This document shows, in pieces, positions 1 through 10,361 of a stretch of 19,731 nucleotides of DNA (position 1 is its first letter; every line of letters begins with the position of its first letter). The notes under the pieces are model-generated. The model was not told the DNA's origin and did no database searches. It was given only the letters and a program-made list of their open reading frames with translations. The position numbers were made by a program, and so were the translations under genes. The stretch is taken from IMG/VR virus record IMGVR_UViG_2802429241_000007, positions 1 through 19,731 of that record. One strand, given 5' to 3'. The DNA comes from a virus (Duplodnaviria > Heunggongvirae > Uroviricota > Caudoviricetes).

Positions 1-1266
1 ATGAAGCTCAGCGCCAGACAGGTCGAGACCGCAAAACCAAAAGATAAAACCTACAAAATGGCCGATGGCGGCGGTTTGTACCTTGAGGTTTCGGCCAAAG
101 GATCAAAATATTGGCGTATGAAATACAGACGCCCCTCTGACAAAAAAGAGGATCGCCTCGCTTTTGGTGTTTGGCCTACTGTGACGCTTGCTCAGGCAAG
201 AGCAAAGCGCGATGAAGCCAAAAAGCTATTAGTGCAGGGCATTGATCCAAAAGCCGAACAGAAAGAGGCTCAGGCCGAGAACTCGGGGGCATATACTTTC
301 GAAACCATTGCTCGTGAATGGCATGCCAGCAACAAGCGCTGGAGTGAAGACCATCGATCTCGCGTTCTTCGATATCTTGAGCTTTATATCTTCCCTCATA
401 TTGGTTCGTCCGATATTCGTCTACTCAAAACCAGCCACCTGTTAGCCCCAATTAAAAAAGTTGACGCTAGTGGAAAACACGACGTCGCTCAGCGCCTGCA
501 ACAGCGTGTAACGGCCATTATGCGTTATGCTGTACAGAACGATTACATTGACTCGAATCCGGCCAGTGATATGGCTGGTGCGCTATCTACAACCAAAGTG
601 CGACATTACCCTGCGTTACCTTCCTGCCGGTTACCTGAGTTTCTTGCACGTCTCGCTGCATATCGTGGTCGTGTAATGACACGGATCGCAGTCGAGCTTT
701 CCTTACTGACTTTTGTGCGTTCCAGTGAGTTACGTTTCGCGCGTTGGAATGAGTTCGACTTCGATAAAGCCCTTTGGCGCGTACCTGCAAAGCGGGAGGA
801 AATTAAGGGGGTGCGTTACTCGTATCGTGGTATGAAGATGAAAGAGGAGCATATTGTTCCGCTTAGTCGTCAGGCGATGAATTTGTTAGGCCAGTTGAAG
901 CAGATTAGTGGTGATAAGAAACTGCTTTTCCCGGGCGATCATGACGCAACTAAGGTTATGAGTGAAAACACAGTAAACAACGCATTACGGGCGATGGGAT
1001 ATGACACTAAAACCGAAGTTTGTGGGCATGGATTTAGAACGATGGCGCGTGGTGCACTGGGGGAGTCGGGGCTATGGAGCGATGATGCGATAGAGCGTCA
1101 GTTAAGCCATACAGAACGAAATAATGTACGCGCGGCTTATATCCATACTTCTGAGCATTTGGACGAACGTCGATTGATGGTACAGTGGTGGGCTGATTAT
1201 TTGGACGAGAATAAACTAAGAATGATAACACCATTTGATTACGGGAAAATATCTAATATAAAGTGA
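1..1266 (+). CDS. int: P4-family tyrosine integrase
   Basis: 421-aa ORF with ATG at 1. N-terminus MKLSARQVETAKPKDKTYKMADGGGLYLEV is typical of P4-type integrases. C-terminal region has HGFRTMARGAL (His-x-x-Arg box) and a Tyr in RAAYIHT. Sits at the element edge. Confidence 0.9.
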   Translation: MKLSARQVETAKPKDKTYKMADGGGLYLEVSAKGSKYWRMKYRRPSDKKEDRLAFGVWPTVTLAQARAKRDEAKKLLVQGIDPKAEQKEAQAENSGAYTFETIAREWHASNKRWSEDHRSRVLRYLELYIFPHIGSSDIRLLKTSHLLAPIKKVDASGKHDVAQRLQQRVTAIMRYAVQNDYIDSNPASDMAGALSTTKVRHYPALPSCRLPEFLARLAAYRGRVMTRIAVELSLLTFVRSSELRFARWNEFDFDKALWRVPAKREEIKGVRYSYRGMKMKEEHIVPLSRQAMNLLGQLKQISGDKKLLFPGDHDATKVMSENTVNNALRAMGYDTKTEVCGHGFRTMARGALGESGLWSDDAIERQLSHTERNNVRAAYIHTSEHLDERRLMVQWWADYLDENKLRMITPFDYGKISNIK

Positions 1267-1291: not shown

Positions 1292-1308
1292 GGGGGGATT
1301 CCCCCCCC
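1292..1308. terminator. GC hairpin between convergent int and cargo genes (possible bidirectional terminator)
   Basis: GGGGGG-ATT-CCCCCCCC dyad at 1292..1308, flanked by A/T-rich sequence on both sides, between the int stop (1266) and the minus-strand cargo gene stop (1323). Confidence 0.5.
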
Positions 1309-1322
1309 AACTTTTATAAAAA

Positions 1323-2216
1323 TTAAACATCTTCTCGACGTTTAGAGTTTGCGCGATATAGCGTTCTGGTTATATGGGATGTGAAATAGTCCTCATCTAA
1401 AAAATGCAATAATCTTTTTACATCTTTTCTTATTTGCGGCATTTTTATTTTTTCTAATTCACCGATTTTTTCAGTTTCTAGAACAACACCAATTTCAGCC
1501 GCTGATATTCTTAACTCAGTCACAGAGTAGTCCTCAAGTATTCTTGATTTATTAATCAAGGAAACTTTCTTTCTAATAACAGAGTCAGCAATTGTTGTTA
1601 AATCAAAACCCGGAGCTACTGAAAATTTTTCATGAGAAGAAAAACTTGTTAATTCTTCATTAGTGGCTTCTCTGAAATAAGCATCTACATCAAATATCCT
1701 GCGGAGCATATGGAAGCTTTTAAACTTTAATTCTGTACCTGCAAGAATAGCTGTTAGCTTATTGTCGATGACTATACCATGCTCAGTAGACTGGCAAAAG
1801 GTATTGCTTGCCTGAAATGGTTTTTGGAAAATTGTTCTTCTGTTATCAATAACTTGCCTTTTATCGAAGCTTTGGATTAAGGCAGTTGCAGGTTTTCCAT
1901 CCTCTTCAGGATAGCCTGAAAACAGAGCGATTATATTGAAGACTGATATTTCTTCCGGCTCCCATGGAGGGATAGTTGTGGGATTATTAATAGCATCTAA
2001 TACAGCGATAACATCATCAAAGTCAGGAATGACAAAAAACTCATCTCCACTAGTGATGTAGCCACCTGAAAATTCTACGCCTTCTGTATAGCGTTCTTCA
2101 AAAAAAGTTTTTTGTTCATTGAATAGCTGTGTGATTACATTTTGAGTCGGCCTGTCAGTAACAATTTTTACAATGCGTGTGCCAACTGTATTATCTGTTA
2201 TTGCAAACAATTCCAT
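1323..2216 (-). CDS. Hypothetical 297-aa soluble protein, second gene of cargo operon (candidate defence effector; KwaB-like by architecture only)
   Basis: ATG at 2216..2214 with AGGA Shine-Dalgarno 6 nt upstream. Start lies 8 nt after the stop of the upstream membrane-protein gene. AT-rich relative to the satellite backbone. No catalytic motif recognised by eye. Confidence 0.6.
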   Translation of the reverse strand: MELFAITDNTVGTRIVKIVTDRPTQNVITQLFNEQKTFFEERYTEGVEFSGGYITSGDEFFVIPDFDDVIAVLDAINNPTTIPPWEPEEISVFNIIALFSGYPEEDGKPATALIQSFDKRQVIDNRRTIFQKPFQASNTFCQSTEHGIVIDNKLTAILAGTELKFKSFHMLRRIFDVDAYFREATNEELTSFSSHEKFSVAPGFDLTTIADSVIRKKVSLINKSRILEDYSVTELRISAAEIGVVLETEKIGELEKIKMPQIRKDVKRLLHFLDEDYFTSHITRTLYRANSKRREDV

Positions 2217-2224
2217 ATTTATTC

Positions 2225-2740
2225 CTATATTGCTATATATGTGTAATCAGTAAGCTTAATCAAATTAACACGATTGCCTGATGCTTTTAATAGTGGCTTT
2301 TTCGATAATATAACAAAGCTTACGCCTGTATCGTCTTCGGCTTCATAATATTTATATCCCCAAAATGATAATAATGGGTTGAAACTGTAGGAACCTGAAA
2401 AACTGATGTAAAAAAATAAACTCACAGCAAAGAAAGAAGCAATCCTAATATCCATAAATGCATCTGGACCACTGATTAAGGGAAATAAATAGGTTAAGAA
2501 ATAATTTGTTATCTCCTTATCTGCTGGAGAAGCGGTGGTTAATTTTTTACTGGTTACAGAATTATATTTAATTGCGTATTTAACAATCAAAACACACAGT
2601 AAAAGTATAATTGCACACAATGATAAGTAAGCAATCATAAATTTATAGTGTTTTGATATACATGAAAGAAAAGCTAAGGTAAAAAATACCGGAGCAACTG
2701 AGCTGGCAGTAAGAAGATATTTGGCAAGCTTATTTAACAT
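2225..2740 (-). CDS. Hypothetical small integral membrane protein, about 4 predicted TM helices (KwaA-like by architecture only)
   Basis: ATG at 2740..2738 preceded by a strong AAGGAGG Shine-Dalgarno. Hydrophobic stretches YLLTASSVAPVFFTLAFLSCI, MIAYLSLCAIILLLCVLIV, NYFLTYLFPLI and IRIASFFAVSLFFYISF, then a roughly 60-aa soluble C-terminal tail. AT-rich. Confidence 0.65.
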   Translation of the reverse strand: MLNKLAKYLLTASSVAPVFFTLAFLSCISKHYKFMIAYLSLCAIILLLCVLIVKYAIKYNSVTSKKLTTASPADKEITNYFLTYLFPLISGPDAFMDIRIASFFAVSLFFYISFSGSYSFNPLLSFWGYKYYEAEDDTGVSFVILSKKPLLKASGNRVNLIKLTDYTYIAI

Positions 2741-2937
2741 ATTATCCTCCTTATCTGCCCTGGTATCTGTATATAAAAACAGTATAACATCAATTTAAGC
2801 ATCAAAGAAGATAATAAAAATCAATTAAATCATAATGATGCCTGCGTTTTTAAAGTGTGGGCTTTTGGAGGCGGGTAATGTACGCGCGTATTCCCTGGAG
2901 ATTCCATTTAAAAGGCTACGTATGTAGCCTCATGTAT

Positions 2938-3249
2938 TTAAGAGTACTGGCCCCAATCTCTGGCAATAAACCAGTTTGGCGTCCAGCTAACAAACTCTTG
3001 CGGATGAAAGTTTTGAGGGATTACAACTAGAGATACAATCGCTTCAGGTTGCAAACTGAGAACATGACTTTTTTTATCGCTTTCGTAATCCCAAAAATGG
3101 AATCTGTCACTTTTATCATGAGCTCTACGACTAGGACCGAAGTCCATAGGCGCAGTTAATCTTGTGATTGTCGCGTTATCTTCTTTTGAATAAAAAGTTA
3201 GCTGAATTTTTAAACAACTATGAATGGCATCAATGAATTTATCGCGCAT
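2938..3249 (-). CDS. Hypothetical 103-aa protein, orphan gene at the cos-proximal side of the cargo
   Basis: ATG at 3249..3247 with AAGGAG Shine-Dalgarno 6 nt upstream. Followed on the minus strand by a short GGCTAC-N4-GTAGCC hairpin and a 197-bp AT-rich gap before the next gene. No recognisable motif. Confidence 0.5.
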   Translation of the reverse strand: MRDKFIDAIHSCLKIQLTFYSKEDNATITRLTAPMDFGPSRRAHDKSDRFHFWDYESDKKSHVLSLQPEAIVSLVVIPQNFHPQEFVSWTPNWFIARDWGQYS

Positions 3250-3375: not shown

Positions 3376-3394
3376 GTGCTTTCCCCGCCTCGCC
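3376..3394 (-). other. cos-like cohesive-end site (P2/P4 type)
   Basis: gtgctttccccgcctcgcc is the reverse complement of GGCGAGGCGGGGAAAGCAC, which I recall as the 19-nt P2/P4 cohesive end. It is followed by the GC-rich dyad ccgcccgctttgcggggcgg. Position between psu and the cargo genes matches the P4 map. Confidence 0.6.
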
Positions 3395-3558: not shown

Positions 3559-4131
3559 TTACACAGACTGACGTGATGCCAGTTGCGCACTTTTACGCGA
3601 AAAAATCATGTTCTGCGCAGGGGTGAATTTTTCACGGCTGTCATCCACCGAAGCCGCGTCAGGCCTGAATCCGATGGTCGTTAAAATGTCGCTATCCTGT
3701 GCGGAATAATTAATTTTTTCACCCTTCGCAAGCCAGGACAGGAGGGCTTCACGCAGGGCATCTGTGGCACGCTGTATGGCACAGTTTCGGGCAATGGCCG
3801 TCAGCTCACTGTAGCCCATCAGCTCCGGTGCCAGTGCCGCCGCCAGTGCTGTGCCGTGCTGCTGCATAAAATCATTCAGCCGGTCGCGGATGCTGATGTG
3901 CTGAACGGCTTCATGCGAACGAATATAACGACCGGCGGCCTGATTCACCTGCCATTTTCTGACTTCGATAATATTGCGTAATTCGTCCAGGCGGCTGACG
4001 TTTCTGCCTTCTCCTGACAGAAGCCGCAGATATTCCTGTTCGGCCGCTGCCAGCTCATTTTTGCGTTGCAGCCATGCTGCTTTGTTATTCTGACAGGTGT
4101 CAAAGGCCTGCTGTAAGGCTGTGCTTTCCAT
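3559..4131 (-). CDS. psu: Psu-like polarity suppression / capsid decoration protein
   Basis: 190-aa ORF starting MESTALQQAF, last gene of the sid-delta-psu block next to cos. Length and position match P4 Psu as I recall it. Confidence 0.8.
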   Translation of the reverse strand: MESTALQQAFDTCQNNKAAWLQRKNELAAAEQEYLRLLSGEGRNVSRLDELRNIIEVRKWQVNQAAGRYIRSHEAVQHISIRDRLNDFMQQHGTALAAALAPELMGYSELTAIARNCAIQRATDALREALLSWLAKGEKINYSAQDSDILTTIGFRPDAASVDDSREKFTPAQNMIFSRKSAQLASRQSV

Positions 4132-4204: not shown

Positions 4205-4705
4205 TCATTCCAGACGCAGCGAATATGATTGTGTTTTTAACCGTACTGGCGGCAGTTCCTGTTTTTCATGCAGGCGTTCTGCCAGTTCGTCCGGCGTGAC
4301 CGGGCGGACAATGAAGCGGGTGATGGTCTGAAGCGTTTTAAACACCAGACCACAGCCCGGATCCGTGCACACATAAAAACGCTCGGTGACTTCCTGAGAC
4401 AGACGCCGCGATGTTCTTGACAGCGCAAGGCCTTTACATCTCCGACAACAATATCCGGTAACAAGCATTCTTTTCGGGCGTTTCATACTGCCGGAGGCCG
4501 ACGTCAGTGAATCGCGGTATCTCTGTTTGCCTGAAATGTATTCCATTCCTGAATCTTTACTGTCAGAGAAAAAGCTTTCACTCGCTTCAAATGTCGCAGA
4601 GCAATAAATATTCCGGCACTGTGCAATCATTATCTTGGTGCCATCGTCCATGAAATGTGCGCGACGGGTGTGAGCAACATGTCCACACGACGGGCAGTAA
4701 ATCAT
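4205..4705 (-). CDS. delta: Delta-like late transcription activator (tandem Ogr-type zinc-finger domains)
   Basis: 166-aa ORF with two Cys-rich modules (CPSCG...C...C near the N-terminus, CCRRCKG and CTDPGCG further on). Start ATG overlaps the sid stop (ATGA). Confidence 0.8.
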   Translation of the reverse strand: MIYCPSCGHVAHTRRAHFMDDGTKIMIAQCRNIYCSATFEASESFFSDSKDSGMEYISGKQRYRDSLTSASGSMKRPKRMLVTGYCCRRCKGLALSRTSRRLSQEVTERFYVCTDPGCGLVFKTLQTITRFIVRPVTPDELAERLHEKQELPPVRLKTQSYSLRLE

Positions 4706-5436
4706 GACAGCAGTCCTCTGGCCTTAAGCTCTGCTCCCTGCTGGTCTATTTTGTCCTGCCACACCTTGCGCTGTGCCGGTGTGCCTGCCACCTCATAATC
4801 CATGTGCGGGAGTGTTGCCGCTGACAGTCCGGCCAGCCGGAGAACCGGCTCGCCGGTGAGGCTGATTTGCATCTGTTTAATTTTCTGTTCCAGCGATGAT
4901 TTCACCTGCTGCATGACAGCCTTATCGGGTGCGACGTAGCCCTGATGGCCGGTGGTGTTGGCGAGCGGATTTTCCTGTACCAGGATACTCAGATGCATTG
5001 CCCGGACAAGCGCCTCACAGGTTTCATTCAGGGCGTGTTCCAGCTCATGCTCTGCATACAGACTCAGAAGGTGATGATGTGCCTTCCGGTAGGCGGTGGC
5101 CGTGCTGTCACACGCCCCTTTCAGGCGTTCACGTTCGAAATTCAGCACCACGGCCAGATTGTCATATTCCTGTACCAGCTCCCGGCGTGCCACGCGCTCA
5201 ATGTGGCGCTGTTTCAGCTCGTCGCTCAGGACACCACCGGCTGCACGAAAGGCCGTGCGCCAGTCGTCAGCGTCGTTTCCGTCGGCCTGCGCCAGCGCAT
5301 TTTTTTCCTGCTCTGCCCGTTCAATGGCCGTGACGGTCTCATCCATCAGGCGGGCGTTCTCAAGATGGGCGGCTCTGGCCTTTTCCAGTTGTGCCAGCGC
5401 GGGTTGCAGATATTCAGGGATGGTGTTGTCAGACAT
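4702..5436 (-). CDS. sid: Sid-like capsid size-determination (external scaffold) protein
   Basis: The track ORF starts at GTG 5454. I place the start at ATG 5436..5434 (MSDNTIPEY...), which has a GAGGAG Shine-Dalgarno and gives 244 aa, the size I recall for P4 Sid. Ala/Glu/Leu-rich helical composition. Confidence 0.8.
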   Translation of the reverse strand: MSDNTIPEYLQPALAQLEKARAAHLENARLMDETVTAIERAEQEKNALAQADGNDADDWRTAFRAAGGVLSDELKQRHIERVARRELVQEYDNLAVVLNFERERLKGACDSTATAYRKAHHHLLSLYAEHELEHALNETCEALVRAMHLSILVQENPLANTTGHQGYVAPDKAVMQQVKSSLEQKIKQMQISLTGEPVLRLAGLSAATLPHMDYEVAGTPAQRKVWQDKIDQQGAELKARGLLS

Positions 5437-5470
5437 TTTCCGGCTCCTCGTCACTTCAGGTTAAGAAAAT

Positions 5471-8027: not shown

Positions 8028-10361
8028 ATGAAAATGAACGTAACCGCCACCGTCAGCCATGCGCTCGGCCACTGGCCGCGTATTCTCCCGGCACTGGGGA
8101 TTCAGGTGCTGAAAAACCGTCATCAGCCCTGTCCGGTCTGTGGCGGGAGTGACCGCTTCCGTTTTGATGACAGGGAGGGGCGCGGCACCTGGTACTGCAA
8201 TCAGTGTGGTGCCGGTGACGGCCTGAAACTGGTTGAAAAGGTGTTTGGTGTCTCCCCGTCCGACGCGGCCGCAAAGGTGGCTGCCGTGACAGGCAGCCTG
8301 CCCCCGGCTGACCCGGCAGTGACGGCTGCCGCCGTTGCTGAAACAGAAGCTGCCCGGAAGAACGCTGCCGCACTGGCACAAACCCTGATGGCAAAAACCC
8401 GTCCCGGAACCGGTAACGCCTACCTGACCCGCAAGGGCTTTCCCGACCGGGAATGCCGGATGCTGACCGGCACACACAGAGCCGGTGGCGTGAGCTGGCG
8501 CGCCGGTGACCTTGTGGTGCCACTGTATGACGACAGCGGCGAACTGGTTAACCTTCAGTTAATCAGTGCTGACGGCCGTAAGCGCACCCTGAAAGGCGGA
8601 CAGGTCAGGGGCACCTGTCACACCCTTGAAGGACAGAATCAGGCCGGAAAACGTCTGTGGATAGCGGAGGGATACGCGACCGCACTTACCGTGCATCACC
8701 TGACCGGTGAAACGGTGATGGTGGCGCTTTCTTCCGTGAACCTCCTTTCTCTGGCCAGCCTTGCCCGGCAGAAGCATCCGGCCTGTCAGATTGTCCTTGC
8801 CGCAGACCGTGACCTCAGCGGTGACGGCCAGAAAAAAGCCGCCGCAGCCGCAGATGCGTGTGAGGGCGTTGTTGCCCTGCCGCCGGTCTTCGGTGACTGG
8901 AATGATGCCTTCACGCAGTACGGCGGGGAAGCCACCCGTAAGGCCATTTACGATGCCATCCGGCCACCGGCTGAAAGCCCGTTCGACACCATGAGCGAAG
9001 CGGAGTTTTCCGCCATGAGTACCAGCGAAAAGGCCATGCGTATCTATGAGCATTACGGCGAGGCGCTCGCGGTCGATGCCAACGGCCAGCTTCTGTCCCG
9101 CTATGAAAATGGTGTCTGGAAGGTGCTGCCGCCACAGGACTTTGCCCGGGATGTGGCCGGGCTGTTTCAGCGGCTGCGTGCGCCGTTCTCCTCCGGGAAG
9201 GTGGCCTCCGTGGTGGACACCCTGAAGCTGATTATTCCGCAGCAGGAAGCCCCCTCCCGCCGCCTGATTGGCTTTCGTAACGGTGTGCTCGACACACAGA
9301 ACGGCACGTTCCACCCGCACAGTCCGTCACACTGGATGCGTACCCTGTGCGATGTGGATTTCACCCCGCCGGTGGAAGGGGAAACGCTGGAAACCCACGC
9401 TCCCGCGTTCTGGCGCTGGCTTGACCGTGCTGCCGGTGGTCGTGCGGAAAAACGCGACGTGATTCTGGCCGCACTGTTTATGGTGCTGGCAAACCGCTAC
9501 GACTGGCAGCTCTTTCTGGAGGTGACCGGTCCCGGCGGCAGCGGCAAAAGTATCATGGCCGAAATAGCCACCCTGCTGGCCGGGGAGGATAACGCCACGT
9601 CGGCCACCATCGAGACGCTGGAATCCCCGCGTGAACGTGCCGCGTTAACTGGCTTCTCACTGATACGCCTGCCGGACCAGGAAAAATGGAGCGGCGACGG
9701 TGCCGGACTCAAGGCCATCACCGGCGGCGATGCGGTGTCCGTTGACCCGAAATACCGGGATGCGTACTCCACGCACATCCCGGCGGTGATTCTGGCCGTG
9801 AACAATAACCCGATGCGCTTCACCGACCGCAGCGGCGGCGTGTCACGCCGGCGGGTGATTATTCACTTCCCGGAACAGATAGCCCCGCAGGAGCGCGACC
9901 CGCAGCTTAAGGACAAAATCACCCGCGAGCTGGCGGTCATCGTGCGTCACCTGATGCAGAAGTTCAGCGACCCGATGCTCGCCCGGTCACTGCTTCAGTC
10001 CCAGCAGAACTCAGACGAGGCACTGAACATCAAACGGGATGCCGACCCGACGTTTGATTTTATCGGCTATCTGGAAACCCTGCCGCAGACCAGCGGCATG
10101 TATATGGGGAACGCCAGTATCATCCCGCGTAATTACCGTAAATACCTCTATCACGCCTATCTGGCCTACATGGAGGCAAACGGCTACCGGAATGTACTCA
10201 GTCTGAAAATGTTCGGGCTGGGGCTGCCGGTGATGCTGAAGGAATACGGACTGAATTACGAGAAGCGCCATACCAAACAGGGGATACAGACCAACCTGAC
10301 GCTGAAAGAGGAAAGCTACGGCGACTGGCTGCCAAAATGTGACGACCCTGCAACAACCTGA
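8028..10361 (+). CDS. alpha: Alpha-like replication protein (zinc-binding primase, TOPRIM, helicase with Walker A)
   Basis: 777-aa ORF with AGGAG Shine-Dalgarno. N-terminal CPVCGG...CNQCG zinc motif and Walker A GPGGSGKS. Length matches P4 alpha as I recall it. Iterons on both sides. Confidence 0.9.
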   Translation: MKMNVTATVSHALGHWPRILPALGIQVLKNRHQPCPVCGGSDRFRFDDREGRGTWYCNQCGAGDGLKLVEKVFGVSPSDAAAKVAAVTGSLPPADPAVTAAAVAETEAARKNAAALAQTLMAKTRPGTGNAYLTRKGFPDRECRMLTGTHRAGGVSWRAGDLVVPLYDDSGELVNLQLISADGRKRTLKGGQVRGTCHTLEGQNQAGKRLWIAEGYATALTVHHLTGETVMVALSSVNLLSLASLARQKHPACQIVLAADRDLSGDGQKKAAAAADACEGVVALPPVFGDWNDAFTQYGGEATRKAIYDAIRPPAESPFDTMSEAEFSAMSTSEKAMRIYEHYGEALAVDANGQLLSRYENGVWKVLPPQDFARDVAGLFQRLRAPFSSGKVASVVDTLKLIIPQQEAPSRRLIGFRNGVLDTQNGTFHPHSPSHWMRTLCDVDFTPPVEGETLETHAPAFWRWLDRAAGGRAEKRDVILAALFMVLANRYDWQLFLEVTGPGGSGKSIMAEIATLLAGEDNATSATIETLESPRERAALTGFSLIRLPDQEKWSGDGAGLKAITGGDAVSVDPKYRDAYSTHIPAVILAVNNNPMRFTDRSGGVSRRRVIIHFPEQIAPQERDPQLKDKITRELAVIVRHLMQKFSDPMLARSLLQSQQNSDEALNIKRDADPTFDFIGYLETLPQTSGMYMGNASIIPRNYRKYLYHAYLAYMEANGYRNVLSLKMFGLGLPVMLKEYGLNYEKRHTKQGIQTNLTLKEESYGDWLPKCDDPATT

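Follow-up and report, generated by a model that had tools for sequence, protein, structure and literature searches.

The two genes at positions 1323-2740 of this satellite are identified, at a probability of roughly 90%, as a Kiwa anti-phage system (kwaA followed by kwaB) that a P4-like element carries as cargo in its int-cos hotspot, and the cassette to which they belong as P4-hotspot system #14 of Rousset et al. (2022, Cell Host Microbe, PMC9122126). The pair is Kiwa in the broad sense and lies outside the prototype clade. As system discovery the finding has little weight, since Kiwa, with roughly 9,800 PADLOC loci, ranks with the commonest defence systems and its cassette in the P4 hotspot is already known, having been catalogued, cloned (2022) and annotated. 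A LexA-box-like palindrome over the putative kwaA promoter, conserved across the clade, suggests that this Kiwa may be under SOS control. All positions refer to the window, i.e., the whole 19,731-nt stretch of DNA that was analysed.

Gene content of the int-cos slot

The slot between integrase and cos contains three genes, kwaB, kwaA and a 103-aa ORF, all on the minus strand. The operon and the surrounding satellite features are as follows.

1..1266, plus strand: P4-type tyrosine integrase, 421 aa (Pfam Arm-DNA-bind_3, Phage_int_M and Phage_integrase), forming the left hotspot border
1292..1308, between the convergent int and kwaB: G6/C7 hairpin, likely a bidirectional terminator (terminator-like in the consensus scan, and by reading of the sequence)
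1323..2216, minus strand: kwaB, 297 aa, ATG start, soluble DUF4868 protein (PADLOC KwaB PDLC00222, E 6.5e-117, residues 1-294)
2225..2740, minus strand: kwaA, 171 aa, ATG start, four-TM membrane protein (PADLOC KwaA PDLC00216, E 1.6e-76, residues 1-171)
3376..3394, minus strand: cos cohesive-end sequence GGCGAGGCGGGGAAAGCAC (exact 19-nt match), forming the right hotspot border
3559..4131, minus strand: psu, polarity suppression protein (Pfam Psu, E 1.3e-88)
4205..4705, minus strand: delta, Ogr/Delta zinc-finger activator (Pfam Ogr_Delta, E 5.7e-22)
4702-5454: sid-sized ORF
8028..10361, plus strand: satellite alpha primase-helicase (Pfam Zn_Ribbon_Prim, Toprim_3, D5_N, DUF5906 and Pox_D5)

The 19 nt at 3376-3394, an exact match, are taken here to be the P2/P4 cos. 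With this 19-mer and the Pfam matches to Int, Psu, Ogr_Delta and the primase-helicase, the placement of the operon in a P4 int-cos hotspot proposed in the first-pass annotation is well founded: variable cargo lies between a P4-type integrase and cos/psu (the psu-int hotspot), and delta, the sid-sized ORF and alpha are found in the same element. The same arrangement appears in Table S1A of Rousset et al., and the string GGCGAGGCGGGGAAAGCAC also occurs in their P4 and PARIS-2 cloned sequences (Table S2A, PMC9122126). A tRNA scan of the whole window returned no tRNA; the tRNA-Leu attachment site lies just beyond the window, and in identical RefSeq loci a tRNA-Leu gene adjoins the element (RefSeq annotation).

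Within the operon, two adjacent co-directional genes stand in the Kiwa order, kwaA first and kwaB second, separated by an 8-nt gap (GAATAAAT, 2217-2224), with an AGGA overlapping the kwaA stop codon. The hydropathy profile of KwaA contains four peaks (~14-29, 36-53, 77-95, which is weak, and 98-114), and that of the 297-aa KwaB contains no hydrophobic peaks. The ORFs and hydropathy therefore agree with the earlier description of a 171-aa protein with approximately four TM helices, an 8-nt interval and a 297-aa soluble protein, as does the GC content with its AT-rich operon (33.7%, against 47.4% over the whole window and 56% in the satellite core). As to the two-gene content ascribed to the slot, the kwaA-kwaB pair stands, but the third gene, encoding the 103-aa WYL protein (2938-3249), had been overlooked. 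The pair was also found in nine other genomic contexts.

Identity as Kiwa and distance from the prototype

The first-pass annotation had noted a resemblance to Kiwa (KwaA/KwaB) and proposed profile searches together with a structure prediction of the 297-aa protein; the resemblance is borne out by PADLOC, Pfam, the fold search and the PDB profile search. The PADLOC KwaA and KwaB profiles match the two products at full length, KwaB matches the Pfam family PF16162 (DUF4868 / KwaB) over residues 134-283 with 28.2 bits against a cut-off of 26.3, and neither PADLOC nor Pfam returned any match to the operon proteins except Kiwa. The AF2 model of KwaB (pLDDT 79) matches only solved KwaB (9mrx_D, 9nyu_A and 9mtn; six chains, E 2e-8 to 3e-6) with a TM-score of ~0.5, the first non-KwaB match appearing at E 0.3. 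For KwaA, the best PDB match of its profile is 'Kiwa protein KwaA' 9mrg_A (E 3e-4, residues 10-135), which, together with the hydrophobic peaks and the PADLOC match, agrees with the membrane protein of Kiwa. Among homologous loci, neighbouring genes matching Pfam KwaA PF28043 and KwaB PF16162 were seen in Photorhabdus, Aeromonas, Klebsiella and Citrobacter, and in Proteus and Serratia the neighbour of the kwaA homologue is a protein of ~290 aa with no recorded Pfam match. In RefSeq, the identical protein WP_000418440.1 is annotated as KwaB-like.

In comparison with Kiwa of E. coli O55:H7 RM12579 (Doron et al. 2018; structures 9mrg, 9mrx, 9nyu and 9mtn), the kwaA-then-kwaB order, a four-TM KwaA and a DUF4868 KwaB are common to both, with the KwaB fold shared and KwaA linked by profile. 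However, KwaA has 171 aa here and 195 in O55:H7, KwaB 297 aa and about 315, respectively, and identity to solved KwaB amounts to 12-13%. No sequence link from KwaB to the solved KwaB chains was detected by phmmer (E up to 10) or by a 20-sequence profile, and the two are tied by the fold search only. Within the clade, the basic KwaB residues R172, R173, K217, K264 and K267 are invariant and may line a basic channel. Membership of the O55:H7-type prototype clade was rejected because both NCBIfam equivalogs score far below their cut-offs (KwaA NF041622, 32.9 bits versus 100; KwaB NF041623, 10.8 bits versus 200). Of the earlier suggestion that the system might be divergent or undescribed, the former thus applies but the latter does not, given its records as system #14 and pFR79, in Domainator 2024 and in RefSeq.

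The identical three proteins constitute system #14, "WYL/DUF4868", with 93 occurrences in Table S1B of Rousset et al. (PMC9122126), in which protein 1 (the 103-aa protein) is annotated as WYL, PF13280, protein 2 (the kwaA product) is described as 4TM, and protein 3 is the kwaB product. The cassette was cloned from E. coli TA280 as pFR79, "WYL-Kiwa"; it occupies the same slot (psu/cos to int), the given start of the cloned insert is near-identical to the window, and there is no difference of substance. Domainator 2024 likewise places Kiwa (3 CDS) with the leading systems of the P4 hotspot. When pFR79 was tested under its native promoter on eight coliphages, it was filed under "additional tested systems" and was not among the seven validated systems with robust resistance (PMC9122126), so that the anti-phage activity of this variant is presumptive. 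Lack of a resistance phenotype had been named in advance as an observation that would speak against a defence role, and this published test touches that point in part. On the other side, each of the five Kiwa operons, drawn from different clusters, that Zhang, Todeschini et al. (2025, PMC11785009) assayed gave protection against phages; the Kiwa systems tested there include those of ECOR8, ECOR12, ECOR49 and D9.

From homology to the systems studied by these authors (PMC11785009), we infer a mechanism in which inner-membrane KwaA tetramers would hold KwaB dimers and KwaA would sense membrane perturbation at the site of phage attachment or conjugation. KwaB would then bind incoming DNA via its DUF4868 domain and stall replication forks, so that late transcription would be blocked, and it may be open to inhibition by phage Gam-type DNA mimics. 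The remoteness from the O55:H7 prototype, together with the TM-score of ~0.5, makes the transfer of the solved mechanism to this operon a matter of inference.

The stand-alone WYL neighbour

Upstream of kwaA, the remaining part of the slot contains two features.

2913..2930, directly after the 103-aa ORF: hairpin AGGCTAC-GTAT-GTAGCCT, followed by TTTTAAAT on the minus strand (sequence reading and scan)
2938..3249, minus strand: third hotspot gene, encoding a stand-alone WYL-domain protein of 103 aa (AF2 fold match)

No sequence match to the 103-aa protein was obtained in Pfam (hmmscan, E up to 1), PADLOC, NCBIfam or PHROGs, and its family, in which 91 homologues were counted, is without a Pfam match. 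Its AF2 model (pLDDT 94) consists of one N-terminal helix and five strands in the Sm-like WYL beta-barrel fold, and WYL domains account for every one of its 19 best PDB matches (PafBC, BrxR, CapW and DriD; prob 1.00, TM 0.5-0.6, E only 6e-3 to 5e-2). The fold is thus held in common with these regulators, and the gene, like brxR and capW, adjoins a defence system. Unlike them, the protein is a bare WYL domain that has neither the N-terminal HTH fused to WYL in BrxR, CapW and DriD (AF2 model) nor the C-terminal extension domains, and without an HTH it cannot be a classical WYL transcription factor.

These observations bear on whether the functional unit comprises three genes, WYL, KwaA and KwaB, with the WYL protein sensing a nucleic-acid signal (ssDNA, as for DriD, CapW and PafBC) and regulating or licensing Kiwa. 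Every full-length copy of the WYL gene in complete E. coli genomes (32 places) adjoins this Kiwa, the WYL-KwaA-KwaB trio recurs in Klebsiella grimontii, and E. coli islands lacking WYL retain about 70 nt of the 3' end of the WYL gene beside Kiwa, a remnant suggesting ancestral linkage of the two. The fold resembles that of the defence regulators BrxR and CapW, and Rousset et al. remarked, without a test, that protein 1 'perhaps regulates the system' (PMC9122126). Nevertheless, a three-gene unit appears doubtful, although it keeps an appreciable chance of being correct. Besides the missing HTH, the hairpin and a separate promoter region intervene between the WYL gene and kwaA; Kiwa of this clade occurs without WYL in Photorhabdus, Aeromonas, Proteus, Serratia, Citrobacter and E. 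coli islands; and WYL homologues (66-87% identity) lie beside unrelated cargo, their neighbour being DUF2971 in a P4-like hotspot of Yersinia and an AbiE island in Pantoea. The hairpin at 2913-2930, which is kept in E. coli and Klebsiella relatives, is likely a terminator between the WYL gene and the Kiwa promoter. The WYL gene forms a transcription unit of its own and accompanies Kiwa optionally, without being a core part of it.

A LexA-box-like operator at the putative kwaA promoter

Three features were recognised immediately upstream of kwaA, among them an operator-like palindrome at 2765-2784 that the first-pass annotation had overlooked.

2746..2752, minus strand: Shine-Dalgarno AAGGAGG of kwaA (read from the sequence; conserved in the alignment of related loci)
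2765..2784: LexA-box-like palindrome, plus-strand sequence ATCTGTATATAAAAACAGTA, with the core CTGT-N8-ACAG at 2767-2782, 27-42 nt upstream of the kwaA ATG
2781..2789, minus strand: putative extended -10 TGTTATACT, identified by eye, which overlaps the LexA box at its left arm

The motif CTGT-N8-ACAG occurs once in the whole window, and the site is the top 20-mer by a LexA PWM, scoring 24.0 bits, about 10 bits above the next in the window and inside the range of the training sites (15.6-27.9 bits). It shares with the E. coli SOS boxes used for comparison (umuDC, recN and sulA) the TACTGT-N8-ACAGTA palindrome, an AT-rich spacer and overlap with the -10, a likeness at the level of sequence alone. 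A search with the perfect-palindrome LexA consensus allowing up to 3 mismatches gave no match; the site has 4 mismatches to that consensus, all outside the CTGT/ACAG arms. By its sequence, the site at 2765-2784 is a CTGT-N8-ACAG operator overlapping a putative promoter, as in the LexA regulon. A consensus sigma-70 scan of the intergenic region 2741-2937 found no promoter, and promoter-like matches across the window did not exceed those in shuffles; the putative extended -10, whose TATACT is invariant in the alignment of related loci, was missed because it has no adequate -35.

Upstream of kwaA, all nine genome loci of this clade keep the arms of the box, as do 31 of its 32 distinct prophage loci; the spacer and the flanks are variable. 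Among canonical-type Kiwa, by comparison, no LexA box lies closer than 100 nt to the kwaA start in any of the five loci examined, and two that are borne on lambdoid prophages have one about 284 nt upstream of it. No LexA box was found beside the WYL homologues in other contexts (loci L004-L011), indicating that the box travels with Kiwa and not with the WYL gene. The clade is found on P4-like satellites, lambdoid-type prophages and islands in Escherichia, Klebsiella, Citrobacter, Serratia, Proteus, Photorhabdus and Aeromonas. Because kwaA resides on mobile elements absent from K-12, it would be missing from studies of the K-12 LexA regulon; no published report of a LexA operator at a Kiwa promoter was found in the literature searched, PMC9122126 makes no mention of the box, and a conserved LexA operator over the Kiwa promoter of this clade seems unreported.

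Given the overlap between promoter and operator, LexA probably represses transcription of kwaA, which the SOS response would then raise. For the clade as a whole (171-aa KwaA PF28043 and KwaB of ~290-300 aa), the balance tips slightly towards membership of the SOS regulon. Under such control, Kiwa would be low in unstressed cells and would rise when ssDNA/RecA* appears, as when a phage attacks, conjugative ssDNA enters or a prophage is induced, and the stand-alone WYL protein could provide a second, ssDNA-sensing input.

The same operator might instead point to a module that is primarily SOS-induced and not dedicated to anti-phage defence, acting during DNA damage as a membrane-anchored, DNA-binding brake that slows replication or the entry of DNA, or serving the prophage or satellite through superinfection or conjugation exclusion. 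Conservation of the LexA box across the clade and the position of the cassette outside the validated set of the eight-phage test (PMC9122126) would accord with such a role, and the studied Kiwa also lowers conjugation, with KwaB binding DNA non-specifically and stalling forks (PMC11785009). We regard it as improbable, however, in view of the protection conferred by every one of the five Kiwa operons of Zhang, Todeschini et al. and of the classical defence slots occupied by clade members (the P4 hotspot and, in prophages, moron positions that separate the lysis genes from terminase or Q genes); moreover, SOS control and defence are mutually compatible. That the operon is a toxin-antitoxin or abortive-infection pair with the same function as P4 gop-beta, in which the membrane protein would be the killing effector, can be rejected as highly improbable: the slot is shared with gop-beta-cII, non-essential cargo that gives defence, gop encodes a small TM protein and membrane proteins are often effectors in abortive-infection systems, but homology to Gop/Beta is wholly absent, gene number and orientation differ (as the first-pass annotation had maintained), PADLOC and Pfam matches are to Kiwa alone, and the homologous Kiwa mechanism is DNA binding and replication stalling, with no membrane killing.

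With the operon read as Kiwa, the great distance of its clade from the solved O55:H7 system makes the transfer of the supercomplex and DNA-clamp model a testable question. The conserved LexA operator provides a concrete hypothesis on when a membrane-associated defence is expressed. If true, SOS control could explain the lack of robust protection by pFR79, which was tested under its native promoter in unstressed K-12, and the operator hints that 'inactive' native-promoter clones may differ under SOS-inducing or lexA(Def) conditions. Such control would also tie the known interplay of Kiwa with RecBCD and Gam to DNA-damage signalling.

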